Shown piece by piece: positions 2,478 through 28,470 of a stretch of 64,000 nucleotides of DNA. The DNA comes from an uncultured Candidatus Woesearchaeota archaeon (GTDB taxonomy: Archaea > Nanobdellota > Nanobdellia > UBA10117). Position 1 is the first letter of the stretch. Each line of letters opens with the position of its first letter. The stretch lies in NCBI GenBank assembly GCA_903864915.1, contig CAIPHS010000003.1, positions 5,345-69,344 on the forward strand, written 5' to 3'. The notes under the pieces are model-generated. The model had not been told where the DNA came from and did no database searches. It worked only from the letters and a program-made list of their open reading frames with translations. The position numbers and the translations under genes were made by a program.

Positions 2478-2511
2478 AAAACCTTTTACGCCTAATCAGC
2501 TATTTTTTCAC

Positions 2512-3504
2512 ATGGGTGTTGATGTAAGGGAACTTTTGATTAAGCATCCAATAAAGCTCGAGGATTTGTCAGGCAAAAAAATCGCAGTTGATGCATTCAA
2601 CAGTTTGTACCAGTTCTTGGCAATAATAAGGCAGATAGATGGCAAACCATTGACGGATTCAAAAGGAAATGTCACGTCGCATTTGTCAGGACTGTTTTAC
2701 AGGACAATAAATTTGATAGAGGCTGACATCAAGCCAGTTTTTGTTTTTGACGGCAAGGCTCCAGAAGAGAAAGCTGCAGTGCAGGAAGCAAGGGAAGTTG
2801 TAAGGGAGGCCGCCAGGGAAAAATTTGCGAAAGCGCTTGAAAAAGGTGAAATTGAAGAAGCCAAGAAATTTGCACAGCAGACTTCACGATTGACAAAAGA
2901 TATGGTCCGAGAAGCCAAGGAACTCTTGTCTGCGATGGGCTTGCCTTGGGTGCAGGCCATGGCTGAAGGCGAGGCACAGGCAGCGTTTATGTGTGGTAGA
3001 GGTGATGTCTGGGCAGTTGCATCGCAGGATTATGATGCGTTGTCATTTGCAACCCCGCGTTTAATTAGAAATCTGACCATATCTGGAAAAAGGAAAGTCA
3101 GTTCAAAATCAGTTGATATTGATATAGAACTTATTGATATGTCTGAGTGCCTGAATTTCCTAGGAATAGACATCGAGAGGTTTGTCGAGATTGCCTTGCT
3201 CATAGGAACAGATTACAATCCTGGCGGTGTGCAGGGTATAGGCCCAAAGACTGCCTTGAAAGTCATAAGAGAAGGCAAGTTCTCAGATTATTCCGGCAAG
3301 ATTCTAAATGTCAATCGATTAAAGCAGCTTTTCCTTAAGCCCCTGACTACAACAGACTATTCTTTGGAATGGAAATCTCCAAATGCGGACAAAATAAAGC
3401 AAATAATGGTTGACAGGCACGAATTTTCAGAAGAACGCATAGATTCTGCAATAAAAAGGATAAAGGACAAGACCGGTCAGGCTGGGCTTTCAGGCTTTAT
3501 TTAA
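2512..3504 (+). CDS. fen: flap endonuclease 1 (FEN-1)
   Basis: The track ORF 2452..3504 is probably over-extended; the conserved N-terminus starts at MGVDVRELL (ATG 2512). Motifs: GKKIAVDAFNSLYQFL, VFVFDG, SQDYDALSF, and H3TH GTDYNPGGVQGIGPKTALK. Confidence 0.9.
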   Translation: MGVDVRELLIKHPIKLEDLSGKKIAVDAFNSLYQFLAIIRQIDGKPLTDSKGNVTSHLSGLFYRTINLIEADIKPVFVFDGKAPEEKAAVQEAREVVREAAREKFAKALEKGEIEEAKKFAQQTSRLTKDMVREAKELLSAMGLPWVQAMAEGEAQAAFMCGRGDVWAVASQDYDALSFATPRLIRNLTISGKRKVSSKSVDIDIELIDMSECLNFLGIDIERFVEIALLIGTDYNPGGVQGIGPKTALKVIREGKFSDYSGKILNVNRLKQLFLKPLTTTDYSLEWKSPNADKIKQIMVDRHEFSEERIDSAIKRIKDKTGQAGLSGFI

Positions 3505-5540: not shown

Positions 5541-6584
5541 TTATTTAACGAGAACATCAAAAGTGTACCTGCTGGTTCTTGGCGCATAGCTGCCAAAAAG
5601 GCGCCAGCCAGCTATTTTGGCGTCCCTGCCAGCCTTTTTGGCGACATTCAGGATGTTTTTCTTCGCTTCCTCAATAGCACTATCCTTTACAAAAAGAACA
5701 ATATGAATTGTTGAGTTTGGTGCGGCATATTTGACGGCCAGGGGCAGGAATTCCCAAGCTTTTTCCGGGAAAGGCATTATTATCCTGTCAAACCGCTCGC
5801 CAATCTTCGGTACTTCTGTTGTTACGTCCCCTAAAATCGCAGTAACGATATGCCCTGCTCTGTTTAATCGTATATTTTCCTCAGCTAGCTTGTGTGCATC
5901 TTCGTTCAATTCAACAGTCCATACCCTGCAGTTGGGCTGGTATTTTGCAATCACCAATGCATAGGGCGCAACGCCGCCAAACATTACCAGGACTTTCTCG
6001 TTTTTCTTCACCAAGTATGCAAGCCTCAACCGTTCATGCGAGGCTCTTGGGCTGAAATACACTTTTGCCAAGTCTACGTTCATCAGAACGCCATGTTCTT
6101 TGTACACGGTGTGGAGTCTTTTTTCACCAGTTATAATTCTCAAAGGCATCACTCTGAATATATCGCCGCGCTCGCCAGCTTTCCGTGCGATAACTTTTAT
6201 GCTCGGGAAAGCCCGCTTGATTGCATGCGCAATCACCAATTCATATTTCTCCAGCTTCGGCAGAATCTCCAAGATACAGATGTCGCCGACAGTATCGTAA
6301 CTTTTTATTACATACTCGATGTCTTTCTCTGAAATCAGGCCTTGCAGCATGTGTTTCAGATTTCCAGGCATGGGTGGCAAGGGCTTGAGATTCCTGTTCT
6401 CAATTGAAGATTTTTCAAACTTTTTCTTCAGAACTTTCTCATCAAATTTATCATTTAATGGCAGAAGCACATAGCGCTGTACAGACCGCCCCATTGTCAT
6501 ACCGGTTGCTAGCCAGCCTTTCTGCAGCAAAAACTCTTTTGCAGTCTGCGCAAGTTCCTTCTTAAGTCTGAGAACTTTTACCAT
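5541..6584 (-). CDS. trm5: tRNA (guanine37-N1)-methyltransferase Trm5/Taw22 family (Met_10 domain)
   Basis: 347 aa. YDTVGDICILEI..., YFSPRASHER, VLVMFGGVAPYALVIA (SAM-binding) and RIIMPFP motifs are typical of Trm5/TYW2. Confidence 0.85.
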   Translation of the reverse strand: MVKVLRLKKELAQTAKEFLLQKGWLATGMTMGRSVQRYVLLPLNDKFDEKVLKKKFEKSSIENRNLKPLPPMPGNLKHMLQGLISEKDIEYVIKSYDTVGDICILEILPKLEKYELVIAHAIKRAFPSIKVIARKAGERGDIFRVMPLRIITGEKRLHTVYKEHGVLMNVDLAKVYFSPRASHERLRLAYLVKKNEKVLVMFGGVAPYALVIAKYQPNCRVWTVELNEDAHKLAEENIRLNRAGHIVTAILGDVTTEVPKIGERFDRIIMPFPEKAWEFLPLAVKYAAPNSTIHIVLFVKDSAIEEAKKNILNVAKKAGRDAKIAGWRLFGSYAPRTSRYTFDVLVK

Positions 6585-6587
6585 TAG

Positions 6588-7994
6588 TTATCGCGATACA
6601 TTAATAGCGGCCTTCATTTGATTAAGGAAACTCAAATATCTTTGAAGCTTTTGCAAGTATTCCGTGTCTCCTGCTCTAGTTGTTTGCTCTATGCCCATTT
6701 CCTTGTTAAGCTGTGCAAATTTTGCTATGTCTTGTTTTGTTTTTTTCGGATTGATCATTCGGTCTATGTTTGCTTTCAGAGTTTCGGATTGTTTAAGAAG
6801 CTTATCTTCACTGTCCTCAGCGAGAGTGATTCTTTCACCTTCCATAAATTCGCGGATGTCAGCAGTGGTGGATTTTATTTCAACTTCTAAGGCTTCCGCA
6901 ACGACTTTCTTGATTTGTTCATGTTGCTCGTACAGTAATTTGAAATCAGAAGCAAATTTTGCCGGCGGATATCGTTGTGCTGCCTTTACAAGTCTTTGGC
7001 CACCCGCAGCCATCGCAGTTTCTATAATTGCTAGGTTTTTCAGTATCAACCTGCTTCGCTTAAGCATCTTGTTCTGCAATGGATTAAGCTGTTCTGCTAT
7101 GCGCTTTTGAACATCTCTTAATTGCTCAATTGCCGTTTCTTCCGCAGCCTCGCGTACTTCAGCAGCAGATTCACCTTTCCCAAGAGCATCTGCTTGTTGA
7201 ATCTCAATAATTGCGGTCTGCACCTGCTGGCGCATCTGTGCAGGCAACAATCTCGCTTCAGAAATCATCTCTTGAATTTCCTTTGACTCTGCAGGCAGCA
7301 ATTTTTCTTCAGTAACCGCTTCTTCTTTCTCTTCCTTTGCTTCCTCCTTTTCAAATTTTAATTCCTGACTATCAAGCTTTGCAATATGTGCGCTTGCAAC
7401 TTCCTTTTGCCTGATGATTTGCGTAATCCTTCTCAAGTATGTGAGAATATGAGTTAGTGCAGGAATATTCTGATTACCGTAAGTTGCGTTGAAGAAATAG
7501 CTGTTTTTTGCCCTGACATTGTTTACTGTTCCTAAAAATTCAGGATTCAGTAGTAGGATTGATTCCTCGCGTTCTTCATTGACTTCTGCCTGGAAATCAG
7601 TTATGGTGTCTTTCTGTTCCTCTTTCTTTTTTGTTTTAGTCTCAGCCCTTTTCTCTTTCACTTTTTCTGCGACTTTGTATCCAAGCTTGCCCATCTTCTT
7701 TACAGCGCCGATGACGCCGGCAAAGGCAAGCAAGCTATAGATGCCAGCTATTGTGCCAAGGATTGCTACGAGCCAGACATCGTGCAGATAGAATATGTCC
7801 AGTATAAATGCAAAAGCAATGAACATGCCAATAGCCCCATCTTTCTTCTCACCAATGTCTTTGTTCGCCTTGCCGGCATAAAGCATGAATAAGAAAAGTC
7901 CAAATCCCCCTATGGCTATGAACGGTATCTGACTGATGCTTGTTATCCCGGTAAGGCCGCCAAGGTTGAACATCTGTGAGTAAATGCCAGCCAT
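6588..7994 (-). CDS. membrane protein with long cytoplasmic coiled-coil region (468 aa), unknown function
   Basis: About 4 N-terminal hydrophobic helices followed by ~350 aa of K/E/Q-rich heptad sequence. Abuts trm5 with a 3-nt gap. Confidence 0.6.
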   Translation of the reverse strand: MAGIYSQMFNLGGLTGITSISQIPFIAIGGFGLFLFMLYAGKANKDIGEKKDGAIGMFIAFAFILDIFYLHDVWLVAILGTIAGIYSLLAFAGVIGAVKKMGKLGYKVAEKVKEKRAETKTKKKEEQKDTITDFQAEVNEEREESILLLNPEFLGTVNNVRAKNSYFFNATYGNQNIPALTHILTYLRRITQIIRQKEVASAHIAKLDSQELKFEKEEAKEEKEEAVTEEKLLPAESKEIQEMISEARLLPAQMRQQVQTAIIEIQQADALGKGESAAEVREAAEETAIEQLRDVQKRIAEQLNPLQNKMLKRSRLILKNLAIIETAMAAGGQRLVKAAQRYPPAKFASDFKLLYEQHEQIKKVVAEALEVEIKSTTADIREFMEGERITLAEDSEDKLLKQSETLKANIDRMINPKKTKQDIAKFAQLNKEMGIEQTTRAGDTEYLQKLQRYLSFLNQMKAAINVSR

Positions 7995-8028
7995 AAGATT
8001 TTAGAACGCATGGGGGCTTAAAAAATCT

Positions 8029-8784
8029 ATGTTGTACCTTATAGGGCTAGGATTGAGCTGGAAGGATTTGTCCATGAAGGCGCTTGAGGCGCTCAATAAC
8101 AGCGAGGAAGTATACCTCGAAACCTTTACGTCAGTTGCTGATTTCACGCCTTTGCAGCTGCAGCGGTTACTGGGGAAACCAGTCCATTTGCTAGACAGGA
8201 AGCAGGTTGAGGAGGATATGGTCTTCCTTGATGAATCTGCGATCAAAAATGTCTCGCTGCTGATTTATGGGGACCCTTTGGCAGCCACAACGCACCAGGA
8301 AATCCTGCTGCAGGCCAAGAAGAAAAACATCGTGGCAAAAGTCATCCATGCACCATCCATCTTTACAGCAATTTCTGAAACAGGTCTGAGTTTGTACAGA
8401 TTTGGAAAGACCGCATCGGTTGTAATCCAGGAAAAAGGCTTCGCACCCGAAAGCTTCTTTGATGTTTTGGTTGAAAACCAGAAAATCGATGCCCACACAT
8501 TGTTTTTATTGGATTTGAAACCGCACGAGAATAAATTCCTGAAAATCCATGAAGCCATAGAAACCTTACTGGCAATAAATGACAAGAAAAAAGAAAAGAT
8601 TTTTACAAAAGACACGTTAGTGGTCGGCTGTGCAAGGCTCGGCTCAGAAACTTCCTTGATAAAATCCGGCAAGGCATCAGAAATCATGAAAGCAGATTTC
8701 GGCAAGCCACCTTATTGCCTGGTCGTACCTTCTAAATTAAATCACAAAGAAGAAGAGTTTATTAATTCACTCACATCTAAATAA
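8029..8784 (+). CDS. dph5: diphthine synthase
   Basis: MLYLIGLGLSWKDLSMKALEALNNSEEVYLETFTS plus IYGDPLAATTH. This is the tetrapyrrole-methylase fold N-terminus typical of Dph5/DphB. Confidence 0.9.
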   Translation: MLYLIGLGLSWKDLSMKALEALNNSEEVYLETFTSVADFTPLQLQRLLGKPVHLLDRKQVEEDMVFLDESAIKNVSLLIYGDPLAATTHQEILLQAKKKNIVAKVIHAPSIFTAISETGLSLYRFGKTASVVIQEKGFAPESFFDVLVENQKIDAHTLFLLDLKPHENKFLKIHEAIETLLAINDKKKEKIFTKDTLVVGCARLGSETSLIKSGKASEIMKADFGKPPYCLVVPSKLNHKEEEFINSLTSK

Positions 8785-8787
8785 GGC

Positions 8788-9003
8788 ATGGGTATCTTTT
8801 CTAAACCGCCAGCGGAAGAAAAACGAGAGGTACAGCATAGGCTGGATTTACTAACTGCCCAATTTAAACTTCTACAAAACCTGTTAAATAAAGTATCGAT
8901 AATCAGGCCTTCTGCTATGCCGGTGATGCTTAAGGAAGTAGAAAGACTGGAAAAGGAAGTTACTAAGTTGACAAAAAAGTTTGAAAGTCTTGCAGCTGCC
9001 TGA
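8788..9003 (+). CDS. small helical protein (71 aa)
   Basis: ORF track. Starts 4 nt after the dph5 stop. The sequence is predicted helical/coiled-coil by eye and begins MGIFSKP. Confidence 0.45.
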   Translation: MGIFSKPPAEEKREVQHRLDLLTAQFKLLQNLLNKVSIIRPSAMPVMLKEVERLEKEVTKLTKKFESLAAA

Positions 9004-9083
9004 ATTTAATTCTTGTTAAGCAATTGTTTTTAGTTAGTGGCTATAATAGCTTGGATAGCGCCACCATATTGCCATTAGAAATG

Positions 9084-9091
9084 TATTTATA
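9084..9091 (+). promoter_or_regulatory. candidate TATA box
   Basis: TATTTATA ends 24 nt upstream of the ATG at 9115, consistent with a short-leader or leaderless archaeal transcript. Confidence 0.4.
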
Positions 9092-9114
9092 GTCGGCTTT
9101 CATTATTAACGAAA

Positions 9115-10416
9115 ATGGCCATGGCTAGGCGAATTTCACTTTCATTTTTGCTAGGGTTATCTTTATTGAAAGCTGCGCTAGCAGCAACATCATTCGGGCC
9201 GAACAGCAAATTTCCTGACGCTGCAGTCAATGTTGTCAAGATATTCACATCAGAGTGGCCGCAGTACACTTTCGGTGTTTTCTACTTCCTAATCTTGATG
9301 GGCTTAATGATGGGCATCATGATATACGCTGCCCTGTCGAAAGCAAAGATTTTCGGTGATGAGATGGGTGGTGGAAAAGGCGGAATCAATGCTGCGCTTG
9401 CCATAATTTTCACATTGATTGTTGTAAAGTTCATGCCCTTTGTGTATTACTATGCTATTGCAATCTTGTTAATTTGCGTTGTCGTGATATTCAGCTTTTG
9501 GCTTTTGTTTGGGGCTATACTCAGACCAGTCAGCGATGCGGACGAAAATAAGAAAAATTATATCACCATGGCTATAATCGGGGTAATACTGATTGTTTTG
9601 GGGTGGATACTGTATAATGTTGGAGACTTTTTTGCATCTCTTGGCGTAAGGGGCTCGACATTGGCGCCAGCAATTATGATTGGCGGAGTAGTGGGATTCT
9701 TCGGTGTATTATTTGTTATCGCAGGAACAAGCGGAGTCGTTTGGAAATCTGCAGGTGCTGGCACATTTGGTGAAGGCGCAAGGCGTGTGCTTGGAATTGA
9801 AGAAGCTGGAGAGGAAGCTGTGGGAGCAAAGAAGGCTAAGTACTGGATAGATGAAGAGAAAGCATATTCTAGGGAAGTCAAAGGGCTTTTTGCAGAAGTT
9901 ATTCAATTGGTGCAGGCAGGGGATACTACAGCTGCGTTCAAGAAAGCCAAGAAGATCAGGGAAATTTTCAAGAAAAAGAAGGTAGAGTTGAAGAAAGCAA
10001 TGGCTGATACAGAGAGGGAGCTCAAGGTTATCAGGAACATGAGCAAGGAAGCCCGGAAAGACAAAGGCATCAAGAAGGAAAAAGTTGAGGAAAGCATCGA
10101 GCAATTAGAATTATTTATTGGCAAATTAGAAGGATATGCTGATGTCTTATTGCTGAAAGAAGGCCAGGGTTTGGAGCAAGTCATCACATTAATTCATAAT
10201 AAGCAAATGCAACCCGCATTGCTAGCTTTAAACGAGATAGCTGCTAATTATAATGTGCTCGAGGAAGAAGAGGTAAAGCTTAGCGGCGTTAACGAAAAAA
10301 TAATACAGTTAGATGCTTTATTGAGACAAACTGTCGGCGCCCCTGCAATACCAGCAGCAGGCGCAGTAGCAGCTGCAGGTCTCGTAGCCAATGTAGCAGG
10401 AGGATTACCACCTTAA
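9115..10416 (+). CDS. polytopic membrane protein with C-terminal coiled coil (433 aa), unknown function
   Basis: Signal-like N-terminus, about 6 TM helices, then a K/E-rich coiled coil and an A/G-rich tail. Shares the motif IYAALSKAKIFG with the ORFs at 15884 and 16548. Confidence 0.65.
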   Translation: MAMARRISLSFLLGLSLLKAALAATSFGPNSKFPDAAVNVVKIFTSEWPQYTFGVFYFLILMGLMMGIMIYAALSKAKIFGDEMGGGKGGINAALAIIFTLIVVKFMPFVYYYAIAILLICVVVIFSFWLLFGAILRPVSDADENKKNYITMAIIGVILIVLGWILYNVGDFFASLGVRGSTLAPAIMIGGVVGFFGVLFVIAGTSGVVWKSAGAGTFGEGARRVLGIEEAGEEAVGAKKAKYWIDEEKAYSREVKGLFAEVIQLVQAGDTTAAFKKAKKIREIFKKKKVELKKAMADTERELKVIRNMSKEARKDKGIKKEKVEESIEQLELFIGKLEGYADVLLLKEGQGLEQVITLIHNKQMQPALLALNEIAANYNVLEEEEVKLSGVNEKIIQLDALLRQTVGAPAIPAAGAVAAAGLVANVAGGLPP

Positions 10417-11405
10417 TGGCAGTTACAGATATAATTGGGGCTTTACCAAGAGTCATTCAAGTTATGCAGCAACTGGAACAAACTATGGCTGCCCAAGGTG
10501 TAAATATACCTGCCGAGATTCAAAAAGAAGAAGCGGGCATTGACATGATAGTTAAGAAATTTCAAAAATATGTTGCAGACATCCGTGCAGGGCATAGAAC
10601 AATTGAACCTAACGAAAAGGCGCCCTTCATAACGGAGCTTAATAATTTGCAAGCAGTCCTTTTGCGCTTGGATTCTGTAGCTCACAATGCAGGAGTCAAT
10701 GCTGTAGACCATCCAATAAGGTTGCTGATAAAAGAGCTTATCGCATTGCGCAATTTAGCCATCGCAGGGGCTAATGCCGCAGCAGGGGTACAGCAAGTAG
10801 TACAACAGACGTCGTACATAGAGACAAAACTTCTGAAATTCGACCAGCAGCTGAACACCTTTGTGACCGATTTAGGCAAGGAAGTCAAAATTGCTGAAGG
10901 GGACTTATACTCAGAATTAACGAAAGAACAGCAAACCATGGCAGAGACGCAAACCGCGCTGAAAGATTTGTCGGTTGCGGCAAACGAGTTACGAGCTATG
11001 AACTTTCTGGCAGCCTCTTTCGCAACAGAGTTGAAACAGGCAGGACAACTTTTACTAAATCTTAGAAGAGAAACAAGACCACAAGAGAAGTTTAAATCTG
11101 GTAATGCATTAAAAACAATGGATAACCGTCTCATCGCCTTAGAAGGTCCGTTGGTACTAAAAGTAACGGATGTGGAAACTAAAATTAACACAGCGATAAC
11201 CAATGCAAAGACCACGCTTGGTAACCAAGTAGTGGGTGAGAAGCTTGGACAAGCTGCACTAAAAAACGTAAGCAAGGCTCTTGCAGACACCAAAAAGATG
11301 GTGACGGACTTGGGTGCTCTAAAAACTGCCCTATTGCAAGAAAGGACTGACGCTCTGACAGAGTTAAATATCTTACACCAAGGACAATACGGTATTCCAT
11401 TATAA
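10416..11405 (+). CDS. all-alpha protein (329 aa), unknown function; paralog of 11474..12103
   Basis: Start overlaps the upstream stop (TAATG). The C-terminal ~200 aa align with the next ORF, e.g. ETKLLKFDQQL.TFV.DLGKEVKIAE and TNAKTTLGNQVVGEKLGQAALKNVSKALADTKKMV. Confidence 0.65.
   Translation: MAVTDIIGALPRVIQVMQQLEQTMAAQGVNIPAEIQKEEAGIDMIVKKFQKYVADIRAGHRTIEPNEKAPFITELNNLQAVLLRLDSVAHNAGVNAVDHPIRLLIKELIALRNLAIAGANAAAGVQQVVQQTSYIETKLLKFDQQLNTFVTDLGKEVKIAEGDLYSELTKEQQTMAETQTALKDLSVAANELRAMNFLAASFATELKQAGQLLLNLRRETRPQEKFKSGNALKTMDNRLIALEGPLVLKVTDVETKINTAITNAKTTLGNQVVGEKLGQAALKNVSKALADTKKMVTDLGALKTALLQERTDALTELNILHQGQYGIPL
11199..11304 (+). repeat. 106-nt block repeated at 11897..12002 with a single mismatch
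   Basis: Direct nucleotide comparison of the two paralogs shows one mismatch (gtagtGggtg versus gtagtAggtg). Flanking coding sequence is much more diverged. Confidence 0.9.
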
Positions 11406-11473
11406 TTTTTAGCAATTTCCGATAAGTTTATTAATAAAATTACACTACGAATACGTAATAGGAGGACTATGAT

Positions 11474-12103
11474 ATGTCAGTACAACCCCAACAAGTAGTG
11501 CAACAAGCAAGTGTAGTCGAAACAAAGCTTTTGAAATTTGATCAACAGCTAACTACGTTTGTGAATGATTTAGGCAAGGAAGTTAAAATTGCTGAAGAGG
11601 ATTTATACTCAGAATTAACAAAAGAACAGCAAACTATGGTGGAGACTAAAACCGTGCTTCAGGAGCTGTCAGCTGCAGGCCAGCAATTGCGGGCTCTTAT
11701 GTCAGCAGCAGGATACTTTGCTCAAGAATTAAGATTGGCTGCGCAAGTCATATTAGATATTAAACGAGCAACAAGCCCAGGGCAGAAGCTAAGTTTCGCT
11801 AATAGGTTGAAGACAATGGAACAGGCTTTAATCACCATGGAACAGCCTTTGCAACAAAATATAATAAATGTGGAACTCAAAATTAGTACTGCGATGACCA
11901 ATGCAAAGACCACGCTTGGTAACCAAGTAGTAGGTGAGAAGCTTGGACAAGCTGCACTAAAAAACGTAAGCAAGGCTCTTGCAGACACCAAAAAGATGGT
12001 GAGCGACTTAGGCGTAATTAAAGGCGAATTGATGCAGGAAAGGAATGATGCCTTGACAGAGTTAAATGTGTTGCACAAAGGTCAATTCGGTATACCAATA
12101 TAA
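11474..12103 (+). CDS. all-alpha protein (209 aa), shorter paralog of 10416..11405
   Basis: Aligns with the C-terminal two thirds of the upstream ORF. The C-terminus ELNVLHKGQFGIPI matches ELNILHQGQYGIPL. Confidence 0.65.
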   Translation: MSVQPQQVVQQASVVETKLLKFDQQLTTFVNDLGKEVKIAEEDLYSELTKEQQTMVETKTVLQELSAAGQQLRALMSAAGYFAQELRLAAQVILDIKRATSPGQKLSFANRLKTMEQALITMEQPLQQNIINVELKISTAMTNAKTTLGNQVVGEKLGQAALKNVSKALADTKKMVSDLGVIKGELMQERNDALTELNVLHKGQFGIPI

Positions 12104-12142
12104 CTAAGCAACCCTTTTATTTTTATCTCTTTCAATTTTTTA

Positions 12143-12994
12143 ATGAATGACATAGCAGACTTGTTTATCGCGCTCGAGAAGAGTTCTAAGGAAGTCTTGC
12201 TGCCTTTGCTGTATAAGATTGACCCTCACTCAGGCATCGATTACTCTGCTGACAATGGAGCAAGCCTTAGCACAAACCTCTCACTTAAGCTAACAGAACA
12301 AGGCATGCTTACTCTTTTGTTTAGCGGTTCTAACTATGGTGATGTCAAAAAAGCCAGAGAGGAAGACTGGCAGCGACTAGATCCGAAAATAAGCGAGCTT
12401 CCTAAAGATAAAAAGGACATAATTGAGCAACTTTTCGGTTTGGGTAATATTTGTGAAACGAGCTTTTCTCTGTATAATGAAGGTGAGTTAGGGGTTCACA
12501 TGTTCGAAGCATTTTTTGGCTCATCGATCAGAGAGGCATATAACCTGAAAGCAAAGTCTAAGGTGGATAAATTTGATAGTATGGATTTCTCGAAATGTTT
12601 TTCCATATCAGCCACATCATTCTTCCCAGGCACGCTCATTTGGTTGAGACCAGAACATATCGAATTTTCACATAACGGATTTTATAAAATAGAGAAAGGT
12701 GAACTAATTTTACCAGCTGGCAAAAAGAAAAGCGATTTGAAAGGCAGCTTTGCACCTAGCATACAGAAATATTTGGTGCCAATTGCAGAAAAACTGCAAA
12801 AACCAGTATCTGAGATATTCATTTTGCATTGTAAGGGTTCCATTGATTTTAAAATTTCCTGTGATGATATAAAAATAGGTTCGCAGGAATCCAAAATGCC
12901 TATGAAGGACTTAACCGATATGTTAACTAACTTAGAAACCGATTTAAGAAATACCTACGTTGATGCATGTAACGCAACTTGGCTAACTAAGTAA
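12143..12994 (+). CDS. hypothetical protein (283 aa)
   Basis: ORF track. Same strand and close spacing with its neighbours. No TM segment or motif recognised. Confidence 0.55.
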   Translation: MNDIADLFIALEKSSKEVLLPLLYKIDPHSGIDYSADNGASLSTNLSLKLTEQGMLTLLFSGSNYGDVKKAREEDWQRLDPKISELPKDKKDIIEQLFGLGNICETSFSLYNEGELGVHMFEAFFGSSIREAYNLKAKSKVDKFDSMDFSKCFSISATSFFPGTLIWLRPEHIEFSHNGFYKIEKGELILPAGKKKSDLKGSFAPSIQKYLVPIAEKLQKPVSEIFILHCKGSIDFKISCDDIKIGSQESKMPMKDLTDMLTNLETDLRNTYVDACNATWLTK

Positions 12995-13039
12995 ATAGCT
13001 ATTCGAAACAGTTTTATTCTCCCGTTTTGCTAAGATAGC

Positions 13040-13552
13040 ATGCCACAGACGTCTATGCAGGAGCTAAATGGGATTGCTGGCAGCTCTAAGGAATTTCTCA
13101 GCGAGCATCTTATGGATTTTCTTGAGACAACACAGACAAAGGATGTCGGTGCCAAGCTGAAGAATGATGCAGCCACAACATCATTGAAGCCTGTTGAGGC
13201 ATTTGAGCTTGAAGTAAAGGACAAGATGTCTAATGCTGCGCATGAAATCCTGCAATGCATCGAGAGGATTGAGGATGCCATGAAACAAAACACTGAGATG
13301 GATATCAAGAATTACCTAAGATATGCAAGGACTAATCTGGAGGAAGCTAACAGGGACATAGAGGCTGCAGAACAGGCCTACAAGGCCCTTGAAATATATC
13401 AAAGAAGGATAGAGAAGGCATCAGTGGTTTTGGGAAAAGAATTAGAGGTTATAATGACTGAGCTTTTCAACAAGATGGAGCAGCTGAAAAGCTACCAGAA
13501 AGTGCTGATGGAAAAATGCAGCATGGCGATCAACAATTCAGGAGTTGAATGA
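13040..13552 (+). CDS. hypothetical helical protein (170 aa)
   Basis: ORF track. Coiled-coil-like sequence. Its stop overlaps the next start (ATGA). Confidence 0.5.
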   Translation: MPQTSMQELNGIAGSSKEFLSEHLMDFLETTQTKDVGAKLKNDAATTSLKPVEAFELEVKDKMSNAAHEILQCIERIEDAMKQNTEMDIKNYLRYARTNLEEANRDIEAAEQAYKALEIYQRRIEKASVVLGKELEVIMTELFNKMEQLKSYQKVLMEKCSMAINNSGVE

Positions 13553-13854
13553 TGGGACTATTTACGCCTAAAGTTATTGATTATGCAGGCGAATTAACGC
13601 AAGAGCTAAGGAAGTTTGTAGCCTCAAGGAAAAAAGGCCAGGCGTCAAGAGCCATCGAACTGGAGATGAAGATGCGCAAGTACAGGGTGATGGCTGAAAA
13701 AATTCAGAATCCAGCTCATAAGAAAGAGGCTGATAACGCCATAAAGCACATTGAGAAATTATATAATGATGTTCTTGAAGCGCAGAGGCAGGGCGCAATA
13801 TCCAGGGAAAAAATAAAGGACCTGATGCACAGGATAGACCGGGAACTTACATAA
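13549..13854 (+). CDS. hypothetical helical protein (101 aa)
   Basis: ORF track. Translationally coupled to 13040..13552. Starts MMGLFTPK. Confidence 0.5.
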   Translation: MMGLFTPKVIDYAGELTQELRKFVASRKKGQASRAIELEMKMRKYRVMAEKIQNPAHKKEADNAIKHIEKLYNDVLEAQRQGAISREKIKDLMHRIDRELT

Positions 13855-13862
13855 CCGAGTGC

Positions 13863-15068
13863 TTATGCAACAGCCACATCTACTTCATCTTTACCCATTC
13901 TAGCTTTGACAACTTCTGGCGTGACTAGCATATACACGTTGTTAGGGTCTGCTTTCATGTTTGGTTCATCTATGCTTGAAAAATCATACATGTATTGTGT
14001 GCCAAGTTTGCGAGTTCCTTCGCTATGGGTGTGGAATGTTATCATGGTCTTGTCTGGATGCAGGCGCAGATATTCTGTAACTTCGTTTATTCCTGCGTCA
14101 CTGTCTTTTACCGTGCCTGCTGTACCTTCGCCAGTCATGATATAATCATCAATTACTAGGTTGTTGCCTTGCCTTCTGGCAAAAGCGCGTCCGCAGACTT
14201 CATTGTCCCGCTGCGTGTAAGACCTTAATTCATCCTCAAGGTTTCTAGGAAGAACTACTTTTACTTTGTCGTCTTTTTTCTCTTCTTTCTGTTCAGACCG
14301 TACGATGTCTTTAGGGTTTTCAGCCCTGTCTACTTTGGTTGCCTGCGCTTCAGCAGCTGCCTTTTGGGCTTCTGCCGCCTTTATAGCGCCTTCATATTGT
14401 GGCATGAATAGTTTCTCGTAAAATGTTTTTTTATCTTTTATTTGACTAAGTTGATCATACTGTGTCTTTATTTTTGGGAAGTTAGCTTGGAAATTTTGGT
14501 ATTCCTGTTCTACTTCAGGGCTGTCTTCTGCTGGCATTCCTTTCTTGTCGCCACCAACCTTGTCTTCTAGAGTTTCATCTTTCTTGGCTTCTTTCTTTTT
14601 CTCTTCCTTTGGCGTCTCTTTCTTTTCAGCTTTGTAGCTTACGAAGTAGGAATGGTAATTGCGCATTGCACCCAGAGCGTCTTCTGCAGCTCTTTTTGCA
14701 TAGTCTCCATGGCCTTCATTTGTGAAAGTCACGTTAACGGTGCCGTCAGCTTCGTTAACAGCTATTGTATAGGTAGTTTTCTCTGCAGGCCTTAGTATGC
14801 CGTCTATGAAGCTGTTGTATTTTATCTGGCCTGTCTGTACGATGCCTTTTCCAGGCTCGCTCTTTACTTCATGAGTGTTATATTCGTTACCAAGCAACCA
14901 GTCACAGATGCCTGTAGAAGTGCTGTTATCGTAAATATCATTAACTAAGTGAGTTGCAACATAGTGGATGCTCTTGCCAGCCTTTTCAACCTCTTTAGGG
15001 TCGATAGTGGCAGTTAGGGTTACGCTATCTTTCCCTTCGTTTACCGTTACGTAATCTTCAATTGACAT
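13863..15068 (-). CDS. protein with C-terminal JAB/MPN-like metalloprotease motif (401 aa)
   Basis: The C-terminus reads NEVCGRAF...ITFHTHSEG...FSSID, which resembles the JAMM E...HxH...SxxD pattern with a longer spacer. The track uses a TTG start at 15080; I prefer the ATG at 15068, preceded by GGAGG. The middle region is K/E-rich. Confidence 0.55.
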   Translation of the reverse strand: MSIEDYVTVNEGKDSVTLTATIDPKEVEKAGKSIHYVATHLVNDIYDNSTSTGICDWLLGNEYNTHEVKSEPGKGIVQTGQIKYNSFIDGILRPAEKTTYTIAVNEADGTVNVTFTNEGHGDYAKRAAEDALGAMRNYHSYFVSYKAEKKETPKEEKKKEAKKDETLEDKVGGDKKGMPAEDSPEVEQEYQNFQANFPKIKTQYDQLSQIKDKKTFYEKLFMPQYEGAIKAAEAQKAAAEAQATKVDRAENPKDIVRSEQKEEKKDDKVKVVLPRNLEDELRSYTQRDNEVCGRAFARRQGNNLVIDDYIMTGEGTAGTVKDSDAGINEVTEYLRLHPDKTMITFHTHSEGTRKLGTQYMYDFSSIDEPNMKADPNNVYMLVTPEVVKARMGKDEVDVAVA

Positions 15069-15069
15069 T

Positions 15070-15219
15070 TTAGCCTCCAATAATATCTAAAGTTACCTTG
15101 ACTATTGTGCCTGGTTTCAAAGCCTCTTGAAGCAATTTAGGTATAACTAGAATTGCTTGCTTGCCTTGTTTGGCTATCCTTTTTGTCAATGTATAACTTT
15201 TTTGTGTCATTGTTTCCAT
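15070..15219 (-). CDS. small AbrB/SpoVT-like (swapped-hairpin) DNA-binding protein, 49 aa
   Basis: Below the track cutoff. My translation is METMTQKSYTLTKRIAKQGKQAILVIPKLLQEALKPGTIVKVTLDIIGG. The 'G.Q..LVIPK.L...L..G..V' pattern is typical of AbrB/VapB-type domains. Its stop lies 1 nt before the downstream ATG. Confidence 0.5.
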   Translation of the reverse strand: METMTQKSYTLTKRIAKQGKQAILVIPKLLQEALKPGTIVKVTLDIIGG

Positions 15220-15258
15220 ATTGTTAACCTCTTATAGTCTTTCTATATGGAAAATATG

Positions 15259-15266
15259 TATATAAA
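15259..15266 (+). promoter_or_regulatory. candidate TATA box
   Basis: TATATAAA ends about 30 nt upstream of the ATG at 15296, in a divergent intergenic region. Confidence 0.4.
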
Positions 15267-15295
15267 GCTTTCGGTGTCTCAGGAACCCTTAAAAG

Positions 15296-15832
15296 ATGTC
15301 AAAATTGTGCTTAAAAAGCATGGGCAAACCGGCAAAAGAGGGCTACTTCTCGTTTGTTAGCGGCTTTAACCTCACCTTGGCTGAACTAAAAGCCATTAAA
15401 ATCTCCAACGAGCATCTAAGTTTCATATGGCTTAAGGTTTATGAAAAGCCAATTGTTTATGGCATAAGCCACTATAGGTCTGCGCCGGAAGGCACAACTT
15501 TGCGCATAAATGCGGACTATGGGAAATTTTTAAGCCTCAATAAGCCAGAATTACAAGATTTCAAATCTAGGGTAGAAGGCCTGATGGGGAAGATTGGTGG
15601 CAATCTGAGGGAGCTGGATGTGGTTTATAAGGGCAAGCACATCCGTTCAACTGTAGATATACAAAAGCCGTTAACTATGGACTTGGTTGCACTCTTGATT
15701 GCAGATGTTTATGATAAGCAACCATACGTGGTGAAAGACATACAGGCGAGTTTCAAAGACGTGCCCTTTAATATGGCTCTTGGAATTCCGTCAAAAAAGT
15801 TGGAAGCCAGCCATCCCATGGGCATAGGGTGA
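15296..15832 (+). CDS. hypothetical protein (178 aa)
   Basis: ORF track. No motif recognised. Confidence 0.5.
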   Translation: MSKLCLKSMGKPAKEGYFSFVSGFNLTLAELKAIKISNEHLSFIWLKVYEKPIVYGISHYRSAPEGTTLRINADYGKFLSLNKPELQDFKSRVEGLMGKIGGNLRELDVVYKGKHIRSTVDIQKPLTMDLVALLIADVYDKQPYVVKDIQASFKDVPFNMALGIPSKKLEASHPMGIG

Positions 15833-15883
15833 TTTTGCTTTTTAGATGAGAACAGCAAGGTTTATATTCAACGTTTCTTTAAA

Positions 15884-16501
15884 ATGAGTATGGCCCTGAA
15901 TTTCTTGTTTCAGAATGCATTCCAAGGCATGGCTGTCCAGACAACTGTACAGGCGCCTTTTGAGAAGATTTTCAGTTTATTAGCAGATTTCGGTCTCTTC
16001 AGAGTTATACTGCCCTTCCTGCTGATATTTGTCATATTTTACGCGATAATAACAAAGACAAAAGTTTTGGGAGGCCCGGATGACAGCTGGGTAAGACCTT
16101 CAGCCGCGGTAATCGGCCTGGTTGCCGGATTTTTTGTAGTGGCCTATACGCCAGTTGTAAGCGCATTGTATAGCATAATTCCGCAGGCTGGTTTCATACT
16201 TGTTGTCTTGGTTTTGATGCTGATGGTTTTGGGGATGGTTGGCGTCAATATTACGGATAAATTCTCAGACAAGATAACACCTATCGCTGGAATAATTGTA
16301 ATTGTTGTTGTTATAATCTTCATGACAATGGTAGGAATGGCGGTGGGGCCGTCAATACCTTCGCTGTACGCGTTCTCGCAGTTCATGATGGGTGCGCTCG
16401 CTTTGGATTTGCCAGCAGACACCATGGCAATGTTAATTGCCACGATAGTTTTGCTATCCATCATTGGCGGCGTGCTCTATTTTGTGACAAAGAAAACATA
16501 A
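15884..16501 (+). CDS. polytopic membrane protein (205 aa), paralog of 16548..17147
   Basis: The N-terminal motif FGLFRVILPFLLIFVIFYAIITKTKVLG is shared with the next ORF. About 5 TM helices. Confidence 0.65.
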   Translation: MSMALNFLFQNAFQGMAVQTTVQAPFEKIFSLLADFGLFRVILPFLLIFVIFYAIITKTKVLGGPDDSWVRPSAAVIGLVAGFFVVAYTPVVSALYSIIPQAGFILVVLVLMLMVLGMVGVNITDKFSDKITPIAGIIVIVVVIIFMTMVGMAVGPSIPSLYAFSQFMMGALALDLPADTMAMLIATIVLLSIIGGVLYFVTKKT

Positions 16502-16547
16502 CTCCGAGTCCAATATGTTTTTATAGCTCCTTTTTCATAATAAGACT

Positions 16548-17147
16548 ATGGCTACATTAGTGGATGCGGTGGGCTTGTTAGTGAAATTAGGCTTCTACGA
16601 CACTGTATTTCCATTCATCCTGATATTCGCAGGCACTTATGCGATGCTGACAAAATTCAAGCCGTTCGGCGAAATGAAAGCCATGAACGGCATGATAGCC
16701 TTTGTCATAGCGATGTTTTTCATATCAATGGCCAGGGCGGTTGCATTTGTCAGGGCATTGATGCCAACCATAACGATATTTATGGTAATGATAGTTGTTG
16801 CCCTGTTGATATTTACATTCATGGGCATCAAGGGTGAAACCATCTCAAAAGTTCTGACTGAAGAGACTGCAGGCTGGGCAACCATACTTTTGATTTTCAT
16901 AATAATTATACTTTCAGTTGTCGCGCAGGTTGTCCCCGAAGTTTCCATATCTTTGCAGAATCCTGTTTTGTCACAGCAGCTCAATTTGTCAGCATCCGGG
17001 ACACCGAGTGAGCAGGCAAGCTCGTTCCTTCTTACACAGACGATGTCTATACTATTCTCGCCAATGGTTTTGGGAATGATCATTATGCTGCTGGTGTTCG
17101 GAATCGCAATTTATTTCATAACCAGATCGCCCGATAAGAGCGGTTAG
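16548..17147 (+). CDS. polytopic membrane protein (199 aa), paralog of 15884..16501
   Basis: LGFYDTVFPFILIFAGTYAMLTKFKPFG matches the previous ORF, with a similar TM layout. Confidence 0.65.
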   Translation: MATLVDAVGLLVKLGFYDTVFPFILIFAGTYAMLTKFKPFGEMKAMNGMIAFVIAMFFISMARAVAFVRALMPTITIFMVMIVVALLIFTFMGIKGETISKVLTEETAGWATILLIFIIIILSVVAQVVPEVSISLQNPVLSQQLNLSASGTPSEQASSFLLTQTMSILFSPMVLGMIIMLLVFGIAIYFITRSPDKSG

Positions 17148-17200
17148 CATTTTAGGATTTTTGCAAAACCTATTTATGTCCAGCTTCCTTAGAAAAGACT

Positions 17201-17593
17201 ATGGCGAAAGGTGTTGTTCAGGTTGAAATAAATATAGAGGCAGAGATAATTCACGAACTTACAAACGCGATAGCTTTGATAAGGCAAATGTATGTTGGAG
17301 TGAAACAACCTTATGTTGTAAAAGCAATAGAACTTAGTATGCAGCGCGCAAGCGATAATAATCATAAATTAAAAAATCTGGAATATTATGAAAAGGCTTC
17401 CCAAAAATGGAAGAGATGGGAAATGGAAGAAATTAAAGATGCGCAAGAAATTATGATGGAGATTTCAGAAAAATTGGTGGATGTAAATTTCTTTGCTAGT
17501 GCTGCGTGGAAGAAATCAGCAATAGCAAAACTTGAACGAGCAATAGACATGTTCCACCAAATGCAAAAATATGAACTAAGAATCGGCGGATAA
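17201..17593 (+). CDS. hypothetical helical protein (130 aa)
   Basis: ORF track. No motif recognised. Confidence 0.5.
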   Translation: MAKGVVQVEINIEAEIIHELTNAIALIRQMYVGVKQPYVVKAIELSMQRASDNNHKLKNLEYYEKASQKWKRWEMEEIKDAQEIMMEISEKLVDVNFFASAAWKKSAIAKLERAIDMFHQMQKYELRIGG

Positions 17594-17595
17594 AT

Positions 17596-18198
17596 TTACT
17601 TTCTTCTTCGTTTTGGCTTGATGCCCCGCTCTTTTGCCTTGCCCACCACTTCCTGAAGGTCCTTTATGTTCTCAGTGAAGGTTGGCATTACAGTCCCGAA
17701 GACTTTTTGCATTGCTTTTAATTCAGTCCCGACATCTGCTATTCCCTTGCCATATTCATCCACTTTGCCAAGAATTTCCTGTATGACCATGTCCATTTTC
17801 TTTTCAAGGTTTGACATTCGTTCCTGCATGCCACCAAGGGATGCAGAGATGTCGTCCTGAGTTTTCTTCATCTCATCGATTTCCTTGCCGACCTTTTGCC
17901 ATTTCTCGGAAATTATGGCTTCTGCAATTTCCTCTATCTCTTCAGTTGTTGGTCTTGAAGGTGCAGGCATCGGCCTGAAAACAGGAGCGGGCGGCATGCT
18001 TTGCGGTAAAGTTTCAGAATATTGGGAAGTTGCTGGCCTCATTCCAAAAGCTTCAGCCCTGGATAAATCATTAGTTGCTGATTGCACTGGGCCAAAGCCG
18101 GTGAGATCGCGAGTTTCAGAAGGCATAGGTGGCAAAGTTGGTATTGGAGGCATAGCCATGCCAAAATCTTCTTCTTGTTTTTTCTTGAAGAATGCCAT
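17596..18198 (-). CDS. Pro-rich N-terminus + coiled-coil protein (200 aa)
   Basis: Starts MAFFKKKQEEDFG, followed by a P-rich ~90 aa, a coiled coil and a basic tail KPKRRRK. Start-stop overlap with the upstream gene at 18198. Confidence 0.55.
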   Translation of the reverse strand: MAFFKKKQEEDFGMAMPPIPTLPPMPSETRDLTGFGPVQSATNDLSRAEAFGMRPATSQYSETLPQSMPPAPVFRPMPAPSRPTTEEIEEIAEAIISEKWQKVGKEIDEMKKTQDDISASLGGMQERMSNLEKKMDMVIQEILGKVDEYGKGIADVGTELKAMQKVFGTVMPTFTENIKDLQEVVGKAKERGIKPKRRRK

Positions 18199-18734
18199 TA
18201 ATCCTCCTCTACAATCTTAATCCCTTGCTCTTTTAAAGCATTTTGCACAATGGTTTTTACTTCTGACCTTGTGACAAATTGCAATGGCTGCCAGAGCTCT
18301 ACATACCTCTGCAGCACCTTGACTTCTTCCCTTGAAGCAAGGGCTTCCATCCTTTTCGATATTCTTTCAGTCATGTCTTTCAGCATGTCGATGTCTGCAC
18401 GAAGGGAGCGCATACCATCTTCTACGTCTCGCATCTCAGAAATAACTTCCTTGTGCTTGTCAACAACGCTGTTGTCAATAAGTTCAAGGTGGCTCCTTAA
18501 ATTGTCAATCCTTTGCTCGACAAGCTTCAGTCTTTGCGATATGTTTGAAACCTGCTCGCCAGCCTTGGATTCGAATTCCTCCATCTGCGGCGACAGCCTC
18601 TTTACAGGCTGTGCTTGCTGTCCTTGCGGAGAAATAGAAGGGAACAGCGCTGACGCTGGCCTTTGTGGTACCGATGCAGGAAACTGGCCATCAGGCATTT
18701 TAATTAAAATAAACAGAGGCAGTATAAAAGCCAA
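18198..18734 (-). CDS. Pro/Gln-rich N-terminus + coiled-coil protein (178 aa)
   Basis: Same architecture as 17596..18198. Divergent from the pilus ATPase gene. The true start may be the internal MPDGQ. Confidence 0.55.
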   Translation of the reverse strand: MAFILPLFILIKMPDGQFPASVPQRPASALFPSISPQGQQAQPVKRLSPQMEEFESKAGEQVSNISQRLKLVEQRIDNLRSHLELIDNSVVDKHKEVISEMRDVEDGMRSLRADIDMLKDMTERISKRMEALASREEVKVLQRYVELWQPLQFVTRSEVKTIVQNALKEQGIKIVEED

Positions 18735-18764
18735 TCGGACTACGATATGGTAAAAGTGATAGGC

Positions 18765-18772
18765 TTATAAAA
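18765..18772 (+). promoter_or_regulatory. candidate TATA box of the pilus-like operon
   Basis: TTATAAAA within GGCTTATAAAAAAC ends 26 nt upstream of the ATG at 18798. Confidence 0.45.
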
Positions 18773-18797
18773 AACGAATTACAGATTAAAGCGGTCA

Positions 18798-23235: not shown

Positions 23236-23814
23236 ATGCCAGAATACACGCTTGAAAAGCTGGTGATAATCGTCTTGGTTGTAGTTGCATTTATCATCCT
23301 TGCACTGATTCTTACAGCATTAAAAGTTGGAGGTGGGTTTTTCTATGCGGGCTGCGAGGGTCAGATAGAAGGTACCAGATGCACAGGCCATATCGACTCA
23401 GGATGCTTTGGTGGTGAAGTTAATGGCGTCTGCATAGAAGGTATAATAGACCAAAACATAACAACAGTTACTTGCAAGGAAAATGTCAAGCCGATAGCGG
23501 CAATAGCAAATCCGAGATGTGAATCCTTTAAGAATTTTTCACAGTGCGTCGGGACAAGTTATCCAAGAGTTGCAAGGCCTGATGAGAACCTGTCTGTCTG
23601 CCTTTATGTTACAAATGGGCTAAAGGTAGCTGGCGAGGATGTAAGTTGCCTGATGAACGCACAAGTAGTTTGTGATGATTTCAGCCAGAGCACCTCGCCG
23701 AAATGCCAGGATGTTCCCGGTTGTACACCTGTTAACGTAATTAAGAAAGCCATACAAGGCTTAAATCCACAGAAACAAAAATGCAGTATTGAAGTGGGTG
23801 CAATATGTTTGTGA
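23236..23814 (+). CDS. N-terminally anchored Cys-rich extracellular protein (192 aa)
   Basis: Hydrophobic N-terminus KLVIIVLVVVAFIILALILTAL, with many Cys residues spread through the remainder. Confidence 0.6.
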   Translation: MPEYTLEKLVIIVLVVVAFIILALILTALKVGGGFFYAGCEGQIEGTRCTGHIDSGCFGGEVNGVCIEGIIDQNITTVTCKENVKPIAAIANPRCESFKNFSQCVGTSYPRVARPDENLSVCLYVTNGLKVAGEDVSCLMNAQVVCDDFSQSTSPKCQDVPGCTPVNVIKKAIQGLNPQKQKCSIEVGAICL

Positions 23815-24947: not shown

Positions 24948-24999
24948 TTTGAAGTCTCCTTTGGCAAGGTTTTTAATTGTTTTGTTAAGCATATAATTC

Positions 25000-28272: not shown

Positions 28273-28298
28273 TTAAATCCCTATATTTATGAAAATGC

Positions 28299-28469: not shown

Positions 28470-28470
28470 A

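Follow-up and report, generated by a model that had tools for sequence, protein, structure and literature searches.

A conserved set of genes beside a type IV filament-like ATPase in a woesearchaeal gene cluster, and its probable role as an accessory module

INTRODUCTION

Which of the genes that lie next to a secretion ATPase in a DPANN archaeon belong to the machine that the ATPase drives? The question is raised by a cluster of 12 kb in the genome of an uncultured Candidatus Woesearchaeota archaeon (assembly GCA_903864915.1, contig CAIPHS010000003.1). The cluster occupies positions 6588–18734 of the stretch of 64,000 nucleotides analysed here, which is called the window below, and it consists largely of uncharacterized membrane and coiled-coil proteins encoded directly before a pilus-like locus. 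An earlier sequence-only reading of the window had suggested that these proteins may be accessory, anchoring or regulatory parts of the filament system, or alternatively an independent envelope or cytoskeletal module.

The matter is of some interest because of the way in which these organisms live. To our knowledge, every DPANN archaeon that has been cultivated lives attached to a host cell, and pilus-like filaments are prime suspects for the means of attachment and of exchange of material. We propose here that the cluster probably contains accessory genes which are conserved as a module and serve a pilus-like machine of the type IV filament kind in DPANN archaea. The conserved unit, as defined by comparison of loci, appears to comprise the ATPase, a large membrane protein that is polytopic, three paralogous membrane proteins with five transmembrane (TM) helices and two coiled-coil proteins of the cytoplasm, together with a divergent shared promoter region. 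Much of the rest of the cluster appears to be of a different kind.

RESULTS

Genes retained beside the ATPase

There are 16 open reading frames (ORFs) between trm5 (5541–6584, minus strand) and the secretion ATPase (18798–21074, plus strand) in the ORF list of the window, rather than the roughly 18 counted in the sequence-only reading. Pfam and NCBIfam scans of all 16 proteins gave a match at threshold for dph5 alone, in line with that reading, and beyond dph5 the searches of Pfam, NCBIfam, PDB, PADLOC and PHROG described below gave no match that would assign any of them to a known family. Genes are designated here by the letter g followed by their lowest coordinate in the window, and L001 to L113 are related loci from other genomes or metagenomes.

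The neighbourhood was compared in 19 related genome loci, all of which are labelled as metagenome-assembled genomes (MAGs) of Woesearchaeota, Nanoarchaeia or Nanobdellati. L001, with an ATPase of 96% identity, is collinear with the window over the entire cluster. In L004, where the ATPase is 60% identical, all that is left is the order dph5, two small ORFs, a g9115-like gene (34% identical, in the membrane part), a g15884-like gene and a g16548-like gene, then g17596-like and g18198-like genes in reverse orientation, and finally the ATPase and the large membrane protein in forward orientation. For a count within this close clade, species-representative genomes were taken together with L004, which gave 14 loci with enough flanking sequence. 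In 13 of the 14, the ATPase and the large membrane protein are directly adjoined by the pair of membrane genes and by the coiled-coil pair in reverse orientation, and in 11 of those 13 the order is identical to that in the window. The variants are an inversion in L012, an insertion of 3 kb in L018, and L015, which has no ATPase within 5 kb.

The same set of genes is found at greater distance. In L026 (ATPase 49% identical) a PRC-barrel gene is followed by three tandem paralogs of the membrane protein, a g17596 homolog, a g18198 homolog, the ATPase and the large membrane protein. The g18198 homolog matches with a profile E value of 6e-22, and its C-terminal LEKYINLWHPLSFTTEEDV motif is kept. 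A metagenome scan with this remote subfamily produced 80 loci, of which 30 have at least 4 kb of downstream sequence. Among these 30, the three tandem paralogs are present in every case, the ATPase in 29 and both coiled-coil proteins in 28. In all, about 45 loci with synteny were collected.

The genes tied to the ATPase thus seem to be g15884, g16548, g17596 and g18198, which are strongly linked, and g9115, which is linked more loosely. Because the linkage persists across deep divergence, as is usual for proteins that belong to a single machine, the five proteins can be read as dedicated accessory parts of the motor, and on this comparison they are probably undescribed machine parts. The suggestion that the proteins are accessory filament components therefore holds for these five, by synteny over ATPase identities from 96% to 49%, and does not hold for the 12-kb cluster as a unit. 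Co-conservation of the cluster with the pilus-like locus, which the sequence-only reading had raised as a check, is likewise found for the five genes, while ten others are missing from most of the related loci.

The PRC-barrel protein is an additional feature of the remote lineages, where it is encoded directly upstream of the paralogs. It has 88–94 residues and matches the Pfam PRC model with 26.2 bits, against a cut-off of 21.2. The gene lies at 7693–7977 in L026 and also occurs in L024, L025, L028 and L031, and it is upstream in 46 of the 64 metagenome loci (within L034–L113) that have enough upstream sequence. In the 64-kb window and its subclade the PRC-barrel gene is absent.

An unnamed family of membrane proteins

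The three membrane proteins of the module are encoded on the plus strand by g9115 (9115–10416, 433 residues), g15884 (15884–16501, 205 residues) and g16548 (16548–17147, 199 residues). The last two form the membrane part of the core, and both are predicted to have five TM helices. g9115 has a signal-peptide-like N-terminus, a 5-TM domain at residues 53–212 and a charged helical cytoplasmic tail. It had been noticed from the sequence that the three share an N-terminal hydrophobic motif. The peptides quoted are indeed present, and the relationship is borne out by BLASTP, which matches g15884 with g16548 at an E value of 3e-5, and by a profile of 62 members built without g9115, which matches residues 53–212 of g9115 at an E value of 1.2e-10. 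The family profile matches g15884 and g16548 with E values of 4e-53 and 1e-42 respectively. In the alignment, Y53, K58 and G63 are invariant in the three paralog lines and in the orthologs of a distant genome (ATPase 60% identical). The family consensus around TM1 is FGFFxVxLPFLLxFAIVYAILxKTKIFG, and the Y...K....G motif follows TM1. The comparisons indicate that g15884, g16548 and residues 53–212 of g9115 are one unnamed 5-TM family of about 190 residues, and that the shared motif reflects true homology rather than chance.

The family is a large one. When 1.84 billion representative proteins were searched with the profile, 2393 representative clusters matched at E ≤ 1e-3, and 755 of these also passed E ≤ 1e-10; nearly all the matched clusters have lengths of 170–230 residues. 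The labels carried by the nearest relatives of g15884 are "DPANN group archaeon" and "Nanoarchaeota archaeon". A profile scan of the window found exactly three members, all of them inside the 12-kb cluster. No Pfam model is matched consistently by family members, and no NCBIfam model is matched either; comparison of the profile with the PDB gave no relative by sequence. The AlphaFold model of g15884 (pLDDT 85.5, pTM 0.60) is all helical, and a Foldseek search of the PDB with this model found no fold match, the best E value being 2.9. g6588, which had been described as weakly similar to the motif proteins, is rejected as a member of the family: it has no match to the family profile at E ≤ 1, and the hhalign probability is 2%.

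In the 5-TM proteins, positive charges follow TM1 and are also found at the C-terminus. The lysines after TM1, the basic C-terminus, and the position of the g9115 domain between its leader and its charged tail together suggest that the paralogs have an N-out/C-in topology, which would place the conserved KTKxFG loop in the cytoplasm.

The orthologs of g9115 are 89% identical in L001, and 34% identical over the membrane part in L004, L016 and L019. Proteins of a similar build, having a signal peptide, 4–6 TM helices and a long charged helical tail, are encoded upstream in almost every related locus (L009:3056–4249, L010:1621–2706, L014:918–2573, L015:1165–2460 and 2500–3333, L020:4352–5512, and L023:1197–2459). 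For the upstream proteins of L009, L010, L015 and L017, considered as divergent equivalents of g9115, hhalign aligns the right region with a probability of 4.3% and an E value of 0.0095, at which level homology to g9115 or to the 5-TM family is not demonstrable. The evidence for the long coiled coils described earlier in g6588 and g9115 consists only of their composition and of weak Pfam matches to coiled-coil families.

The divergent coiled-coil pair

The two coiled-coil proteins are encoded on the minus strand by g17596 (17596–18198, 200 residues) and g18198 (18198–18698, 166 residues), and both belong to the core. As described in the sequence-only reading, they have Pro-rich N-termini followed by charged helical regions that are poor in Pro and Gly, and they are transcribed divergently from the ATPase, from which they are separated by a spacer of 99 bp (18699–18797). 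Composition, the spacer and a structural model of g18198 all bear out that description. Reading of the spacer sequence finds an AT-rich, TATA-like box about 25–30 bp upstream of each of the two start codons, and we infer that the spacer is a shared back-to-back promoter region. A scan for promoters and terminators gave counts that were not clearly above those of shuffled controls for either feature, using consensus patterns that are bacterial, whereas the organism is an archaeon.

For g18198 the most likely start is the ATG at 18698, giving 166 residues, and not the TTG at 18734. The TTG start is probably wrong because the orthologs all have about 150–167 residues, and because the TATA-like box lies 25–30 bp before the ATG. 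In the AlphaFold model of g18198 (pLDDT 76), residues 1–36 are disordered, residues 37–136 form a single helix of about 100 residues, and there is a short terminal helix. The family is confined to these archaea. Its N-terminus is variable and Pro-rich, and its C-terminus carries the invariant motif ASxEEVKVLxRYVxxWQPLxFVTRxEV.

g17596 contains a conserved helical domain (GKVEEYxKGISDVxxELKAMQKVF...) and then a basic tail. The N-terminus is again variable in the family, often having a small UBA-like motif and a Pro-rich linker; in L026 the Pfam family UBA_3 is matched at an E value of 8e-4. Orthologs are found in all loci that have the module, including the remote L026 (profile E value 3e-33) and L030 (3.5e-31). 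Mutual similarity of g17596 and g18198 is not established, with a BLASTP E value of 0.018 and an hhalign probability of 27.5%.

Several known coiled-coil families were considered for the pair and rejected. g17596 matches ArlX (PF24151) with 12.6 bits against a cut-off of 28.7; the match is not recurrent among 16 family members, and g17596 has no TM helix. g18198 matches FlaC_arch (PF05377) with 14.5 bits against a cut-off of 27.8, and any match at E ≤ 0.1 is seen in only 3 of 21 family members. FliH, FliJ and IcmG/DotF fall well short of their cut-offs and appear in lists with dozens of other coiled-coil families. Such Pfam matches of the two families are generic coiled-coil noise. DUF7310 recurs at sub-threshold level, in 9 of 21 members of the g18198 family (best E value 6.7e-5) and in 6 of 16 members of the g17596 family.

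The ATPase, the large membrane protein and the pilin-like genes

The ATPase has 758 residues and is of the FlaI/TadA/GspE type. It matches Pfam T2SSE with 52.5 bits (cut-off 24.9), and its PDB matches are to afGspE (4e-27), CpaF (6e-22) and FlaI (5e-19). In NCBIfam, neither FlaI nor TadA is matched above its cut-off. It is the one gene of this type in the window, and it is followed by one large membrane protein (21074–23128, plus strand) of 684 residues, or 700 if counted from the GTG at 21026. This protein has 8–9 TM helices and always follows the ATPase; it is presumed to be the platform protein, a label that derives from its position and topology.

Two further observations were made on the ATPase. 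It carries an N-terminal extension of about 200 residues, the alignment with afGspE beginning at about residue 215, and the length is kept in the 49%-identical ortholog in L026 (752 residues). The ortholog in L020:10354–14151 (Woesearchaeota MAG CAYGVN010000012.1) is one uninterrupted ORF of 1265 residues, with an insertion of about 505 residues inside the Walker-B-like segment VED|TLELP. The insert has Ser as its first residue and His-Asn as its last residues before Thr, and it contains the LAGLIDADG-like motifs LWLADGCYD and IFSGDGCA. From these features it is likely to be an intein with a homing endonuclease.

The region downstream of the large membrane protein (23236–34193, plus strand) contains at least six genes with pilin-like N-termini that resemble class III signal peptides as judged by eye, in which K/R-G is followed by a hydrophobic segment. 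Examples are MAKAQG|LPLSFIVI, MAKRGQG|LPLETIVI and MIAIKG|QAEIIFVLIF. Amid these genes there is a protein of 1090 residues (25000–28272), whose ortholog in L001 has Kelch/beta-propeller and metallophosphatase Pfam families. This Kelch/metallophosphatase protein is an unusual component for a pilus operon.

The variable remainder of the cluster

Ten genes of the cluster (g6588, g8788, g10416, g11474, g12143, g13040, g13549, g13863, g15296 and g17201) appear from the locus comparison to be lineage-specific and not part of a conserved machine. They are the ten that are missing from most related loci, and where they are present, several are hypervariable between close strains, L001 having alleles of 24–30% identity in their place. 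Over the cluster and the ATPase gene, the window and L001 share blocks of DNA with 81–91% identity, and there is no DNA similarity at 6584–6916, 10347–13012 (containing g10416, g11474 and g12143), 13677–14354 and 17138–17565 (containing g17201). Proteins of these dissimilar blocks are 24–53% identical to L001, compared with 87–97% for their neighbours. The last three blocks are sharp-edged, in a locus of otherwise 85–91% identity, and the pattern looks like cassette replacement by recombination. Remote lineages have the three paralogs directly in tandem. The 5.5 kb that separate g9115 from g15884 therefore resemble an insertion into the module that is specific to this lineage and would be rapidly replaced.

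At the start of the cluster, g6588 (6588–7994, minus strand, 468 residues) has about three N-terminal TM helices and a long charged helical tail, according to TM prediction and composition, and has a homolog only in L001 (72% identical). g8788 (8788–9003, plus strand, 71 residues) is helical and variable, being 47% identical over 49 residues in L001 and found nowhere else. g10416 (329 residues) and g11474 (209 residues) occupy 10416–12103 on the plus strand. They had been recognized as a paralog pair, and this is confirmed by 68% identity over 194 residues (BLASTP E value 2e-90). They lie in tandem, are all-helical and hypervariable, and are 25–27% identical to their positional counterparts in L001, and they are ORFans, in that a search of 5.8e9 proteins recovered only the two themselves. 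g12143 (12143–12994, plus strand, 283 residues) is soluble and is found in a few Woesearchaeota loci at 24–28% identity. The small helical proteins g13040 (170 residues) and g13549 (101 residues) lie at 13040–13854 on the plus strand; g13040 is conserved in a subclade (50–94%) and occurs in few Woesearchaeota loci, and g13549 is 53% identical in L001 and limited to this strain group. g15296 (15296–15832, plus strand, 178 residues) is soluble, 91% identical in L001 and absent elsewhere. g17201 (17201–17593, plus strand, 130 residues) is a helical, hypervariable insert, which is only 30% identical in L001 despite flanking genes that are 90–94% identical, and is absent elsewhere.

g13863 (13863–15080, minus strand, 405 residues) has a KE-rich linker, and its counterpart in L001 is split into fragments of 260 and 67 residues. 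Its C-terminus (NEVCG..., HTHSEGT...SSID) appears JAMM-like by eye. A JAMM/MPN metalloprotease was rejected, as the spacer between H and S is 15 residues and not 7, and there is no profile support. No Pfam match was found at E ≤ 1 for the whole protein or at E ≤ 10 for the C-terminal 145 residues, and there is no PDB relative. The proteins of the variable middle block (g10416, g11474, g12143, g13549, g13863, g17201 and others) have neither a TM helix nor a signal peptide. For the ten variable proteins, PADLOC matches are at noise level only (E values of 5e-4 to 7e-3, 13–17 bits), and there is no PHROG match.

The housekeeping gene dph5 (8029–8784, plus strand), encoding diphthine synthase, matches Pfam TP_methylase with 61.5 bits and is co-directional with the cluster. 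It is found upstream of the module in L001, L004, L009, L010, L019 and L020 as well as in the window, often together with trm5 and trpS. In clade 1 pilus loci, a PP-loop ATPase belonging to the diphthamide synthase family is co-transcribed (Makarova et al., 2016, PMC4858521). The synteny of dph5 with the pilus module may be a coincidence or may indicate a shared regulon.

DISCUSSION

The points for and against an accessory module

The proposal that five of these proteins serve a type IV filament machine has several points to set against it. It is drawn wholly from gene order. The loci were gathered with patterns derived from the families themselves, and so the tallies of 13/14 and 29/30 give the frequency with which the families lie near the ATPase, and not the frequency of the families in the ATPase clade. 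A minority of loci break the linkage: L015 carries family genes with no adjacent ATPase, L057 has the membrane paralogs and no ATPase within 6.9 kb, L028 and L031 have the PRC barrel and a single paralog with no adjacent ATPase, and in L030 the three paralogs and a g17596-like gene are followed by the CCA enzyme, again with no adjacent ATPase. For the 684-residue protein, Pfam and NCBIfam gave no match to a T2SSF, TadC or FlaJ model, and the PDB gave none by sequence; its ortholog in L026 behaves alike. Because the presumed platform matches none of these models, the pilus label rests on the ATPase and the pilin-like genes. Finally, no known accessory family was detected: the matches to ArlX, FlaC_arch and DUF7310 are all below threshold and may be generic coiled-coil noise.

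The main rival is an independent module of an envelope, cytoskeletal or division type, which would be made up of the paralogs, the PRC-barrel protein of other lineages and possibly the two coiled-coil proteins, and would merely be kept beside the ATPase operon in small, gene-dense DPANN genomes. This would fit the PRC-barrel gene directly upstream of the paralogs in 46/64 metagenome loci and in L024–L026, L028 and L031, the more so as the PRC-barrel proteins CdpB1–3 act in archaeal division (bioRxiv 10.1101/2023.03.28.534520). It would also account for the loci that have paralogs and no nearby ATPase, and the housekeeping genes dph5, trm5 and trpS are syntenic with the module as well. We nevertheless consider it rather unlikely, given that the ATPase is adjacent in nearly all the remote-clade and close-clade loci tallied above, that the coiled-coil pair keeps its divergent, promoter-sharing arrangement down to an ATPase identity of 49%, and that a PRC-barrel gene is lacking in the window and its subclade; moreover, a survey of PRC-barrel neighbourhoods does not list such a context (bioRxiv 10.1101/2023.03.28.534520). 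It is also conceivable that the coiled-coil proteins are regulators or chaperones of assembly, and that the membrane paralogs are unrelated proteins of transport or lipid handling. HP0958 in Helicobacter flagella is a precedent for a coiled-coil protein of this kind, and arCOG07564, predicted for haloarchaeal pilus loci of clade 4F, is another. A coiled-coil protein is specific to the clade-4F pilus loci, whose ATPase clade is also present among nanoarchaea (PMC4858521), and the sub-threshold matches to DUF7310, a coiled-coil region of unknown function, and the UBA-like N-terminal motif of many g17596 orthologs point the same way. Every one of these matches is below its gathering threshold, among dozens of generic coiled-coil matches, no Zn ribbon or other regulatory domain was found, and the gene order, strictly one-to-one with respect to the paralogs, speaks for a stoichiometric complex. 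On these grounds this reading is distinctly improbable.

A further explanation concerns the variable middle block, and is compatible with an accessory function of the core. The block could be a conflict or host-interaction cassette, encoding effectors, immunity proteins or surface-contact factors that are under diversifying selection and exchanged by recombination. The blocks without DNA similarity to L001 inside an otherwise similar locus, the low identity of their proteins relative to their neighbours, the lack of relatives of g10416 and g11474 and the fragmentation of g13863 in L001 are all consistent with such a cassette. It is possible, although unlikely, since the block proteins have no signal peptide or TM helix, PADLOC, PHROG, Pfam and NCBIfam gave no match above noise, no toxin or immunity signature was found, and fast drift of non-essential structural proteins would look alike. 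A very speculative and still less likely reading is that the module is no ordinary adhesion pilus and that a type IV filament has given rise to an envelope apparatus specific to DPANN, in which the paralogs, whose fold has no solved relative, would form a membrane channel or collar beside a highly divergent platform, the coiled-coil stalks and the N-terminally extended ATPase would drive contact with the host cell or uptake from it, and the hypervariable proteins would be exchangeable host-specific cargo or adaptors.

A possible arrangement of the module

Returning to the accessory module, which we favour, we infer a physical association, a topology and a scaffold role for the five proteins that could be as follows. 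The three paralogs, in an N-out/C-in orientation, would form a hetero-oligomeric collar or anchor beside the large polytopic membrane protein. The cytoplasmic KTKxFG loop, the basic tails and the g9115 tail would dock the two coiled-coil proteins, which in turn could form an elongated stalk or ring of about 15 nm. This stalk or ring would keep the hexameric ATPase aligned with the parts in the membrane, a role that may be likened to that of ArlX or ArlCDE in archaella, or of PilM/N/O or GspL/M in bacteria. g17596 and g18198 would be expressed from the promoter region that lies back-to-back with that of the operon of the ATPase and large membrane protein.

On this proposal, the most conserved pilus-type motor of Woesearchaeota and Nanoarchaeia-like genomes has five extra proteins that are named in no database, among them members of a membrane family of more than 2000 clusters without a solved structural relative. 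If they are motor subunits, they would be concrete targets in the few cultivable DPANN. Separation of the stable core from the fast-turnover insertion also prevents the whole 12 kb from being over-annotated as pilus genes.

Comparison with known systems

Dark-matter genes have been noted in DPANN pilus islands (PMC6393860). Our literature search found no description of this accessory set, although its coverage was incomplete and it is thus no proof of novelty. The haloarchaeal clade-4F pilus loci encode an intracellular coiled-coil protein, arCOG07564, which is predicted to be regulatory (Makarova, Koonin & Albers, 2016, PMC4858521). They resemble the module in having a cytoplasmic coiled-coil protein with a pilus ATPase. 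Any homology is putative, the DUF7310 matches being only sub-threshold, and, unlike the module, no 5-TM paralog family is described for them. The PRC-barrel proteins CdpB1–3 have a parallel in the small PRC-barrel gene before the three paralogs of the remote lineages. The window has no such gene, and no link of CdpB to pilus ATPases is reported in bioRxiv 10.1101/2023.03.28.534520.

The peripheral stalks of A/V-type ATPases (E/G) and of flagella (FliH) use pairs of long single helices to tether a hexameric ATPase to membrane components, and the modelled helix of about 100 residues in g18198 is similar, as an analogy of shape only. Unlike these stalks, g18198 is predicted to have no C-terminal globular head domain. 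PilM/N/O and GspL/M are, like the module, small accessory proteins that are encoded with the ATPase and platform and link the cytoplasmic ATPase to membrane components. Coiled-coil segments are present in PilN/PilO and in GspL/GspM, each of which is a pair of related proteins. They are bitopic with periplasmic ferredoxin-like domains, whereas the module has soluble coiled-coil proteins and 5-TM membrane proteins that expose hardly any mass outside the cytoplasm. No similarity of sequence or fold to them was detected for the module proteins in Pfam/NCBIfam, in the PDB or with Foldseek of g15884.

The archaellum offers a further parallel. ArlX of Crenarchaeota and ArlC/D/E of Euryarchaeota are coiled-coil proteins whose genes, as in the module, neighbour those of a polytopic membrane protein and an ATPase of the FlaI type, and they are considered to form a ring or scaffold around the motor. 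ArlX differs from g17596 and g18198 in having an N-terminal TM anchor, and genes for ArlH/KaiC-like, ArlF and ArlG proteins were not seen in the 12-kb cluster. Archaella also have no trio of 5-TM paralogs. If the five proteins are indeed subunits of the motor, the architecture of the DPANN machine would differ from those of archaella, of Aap and Ups pili and of the bacterial systems.

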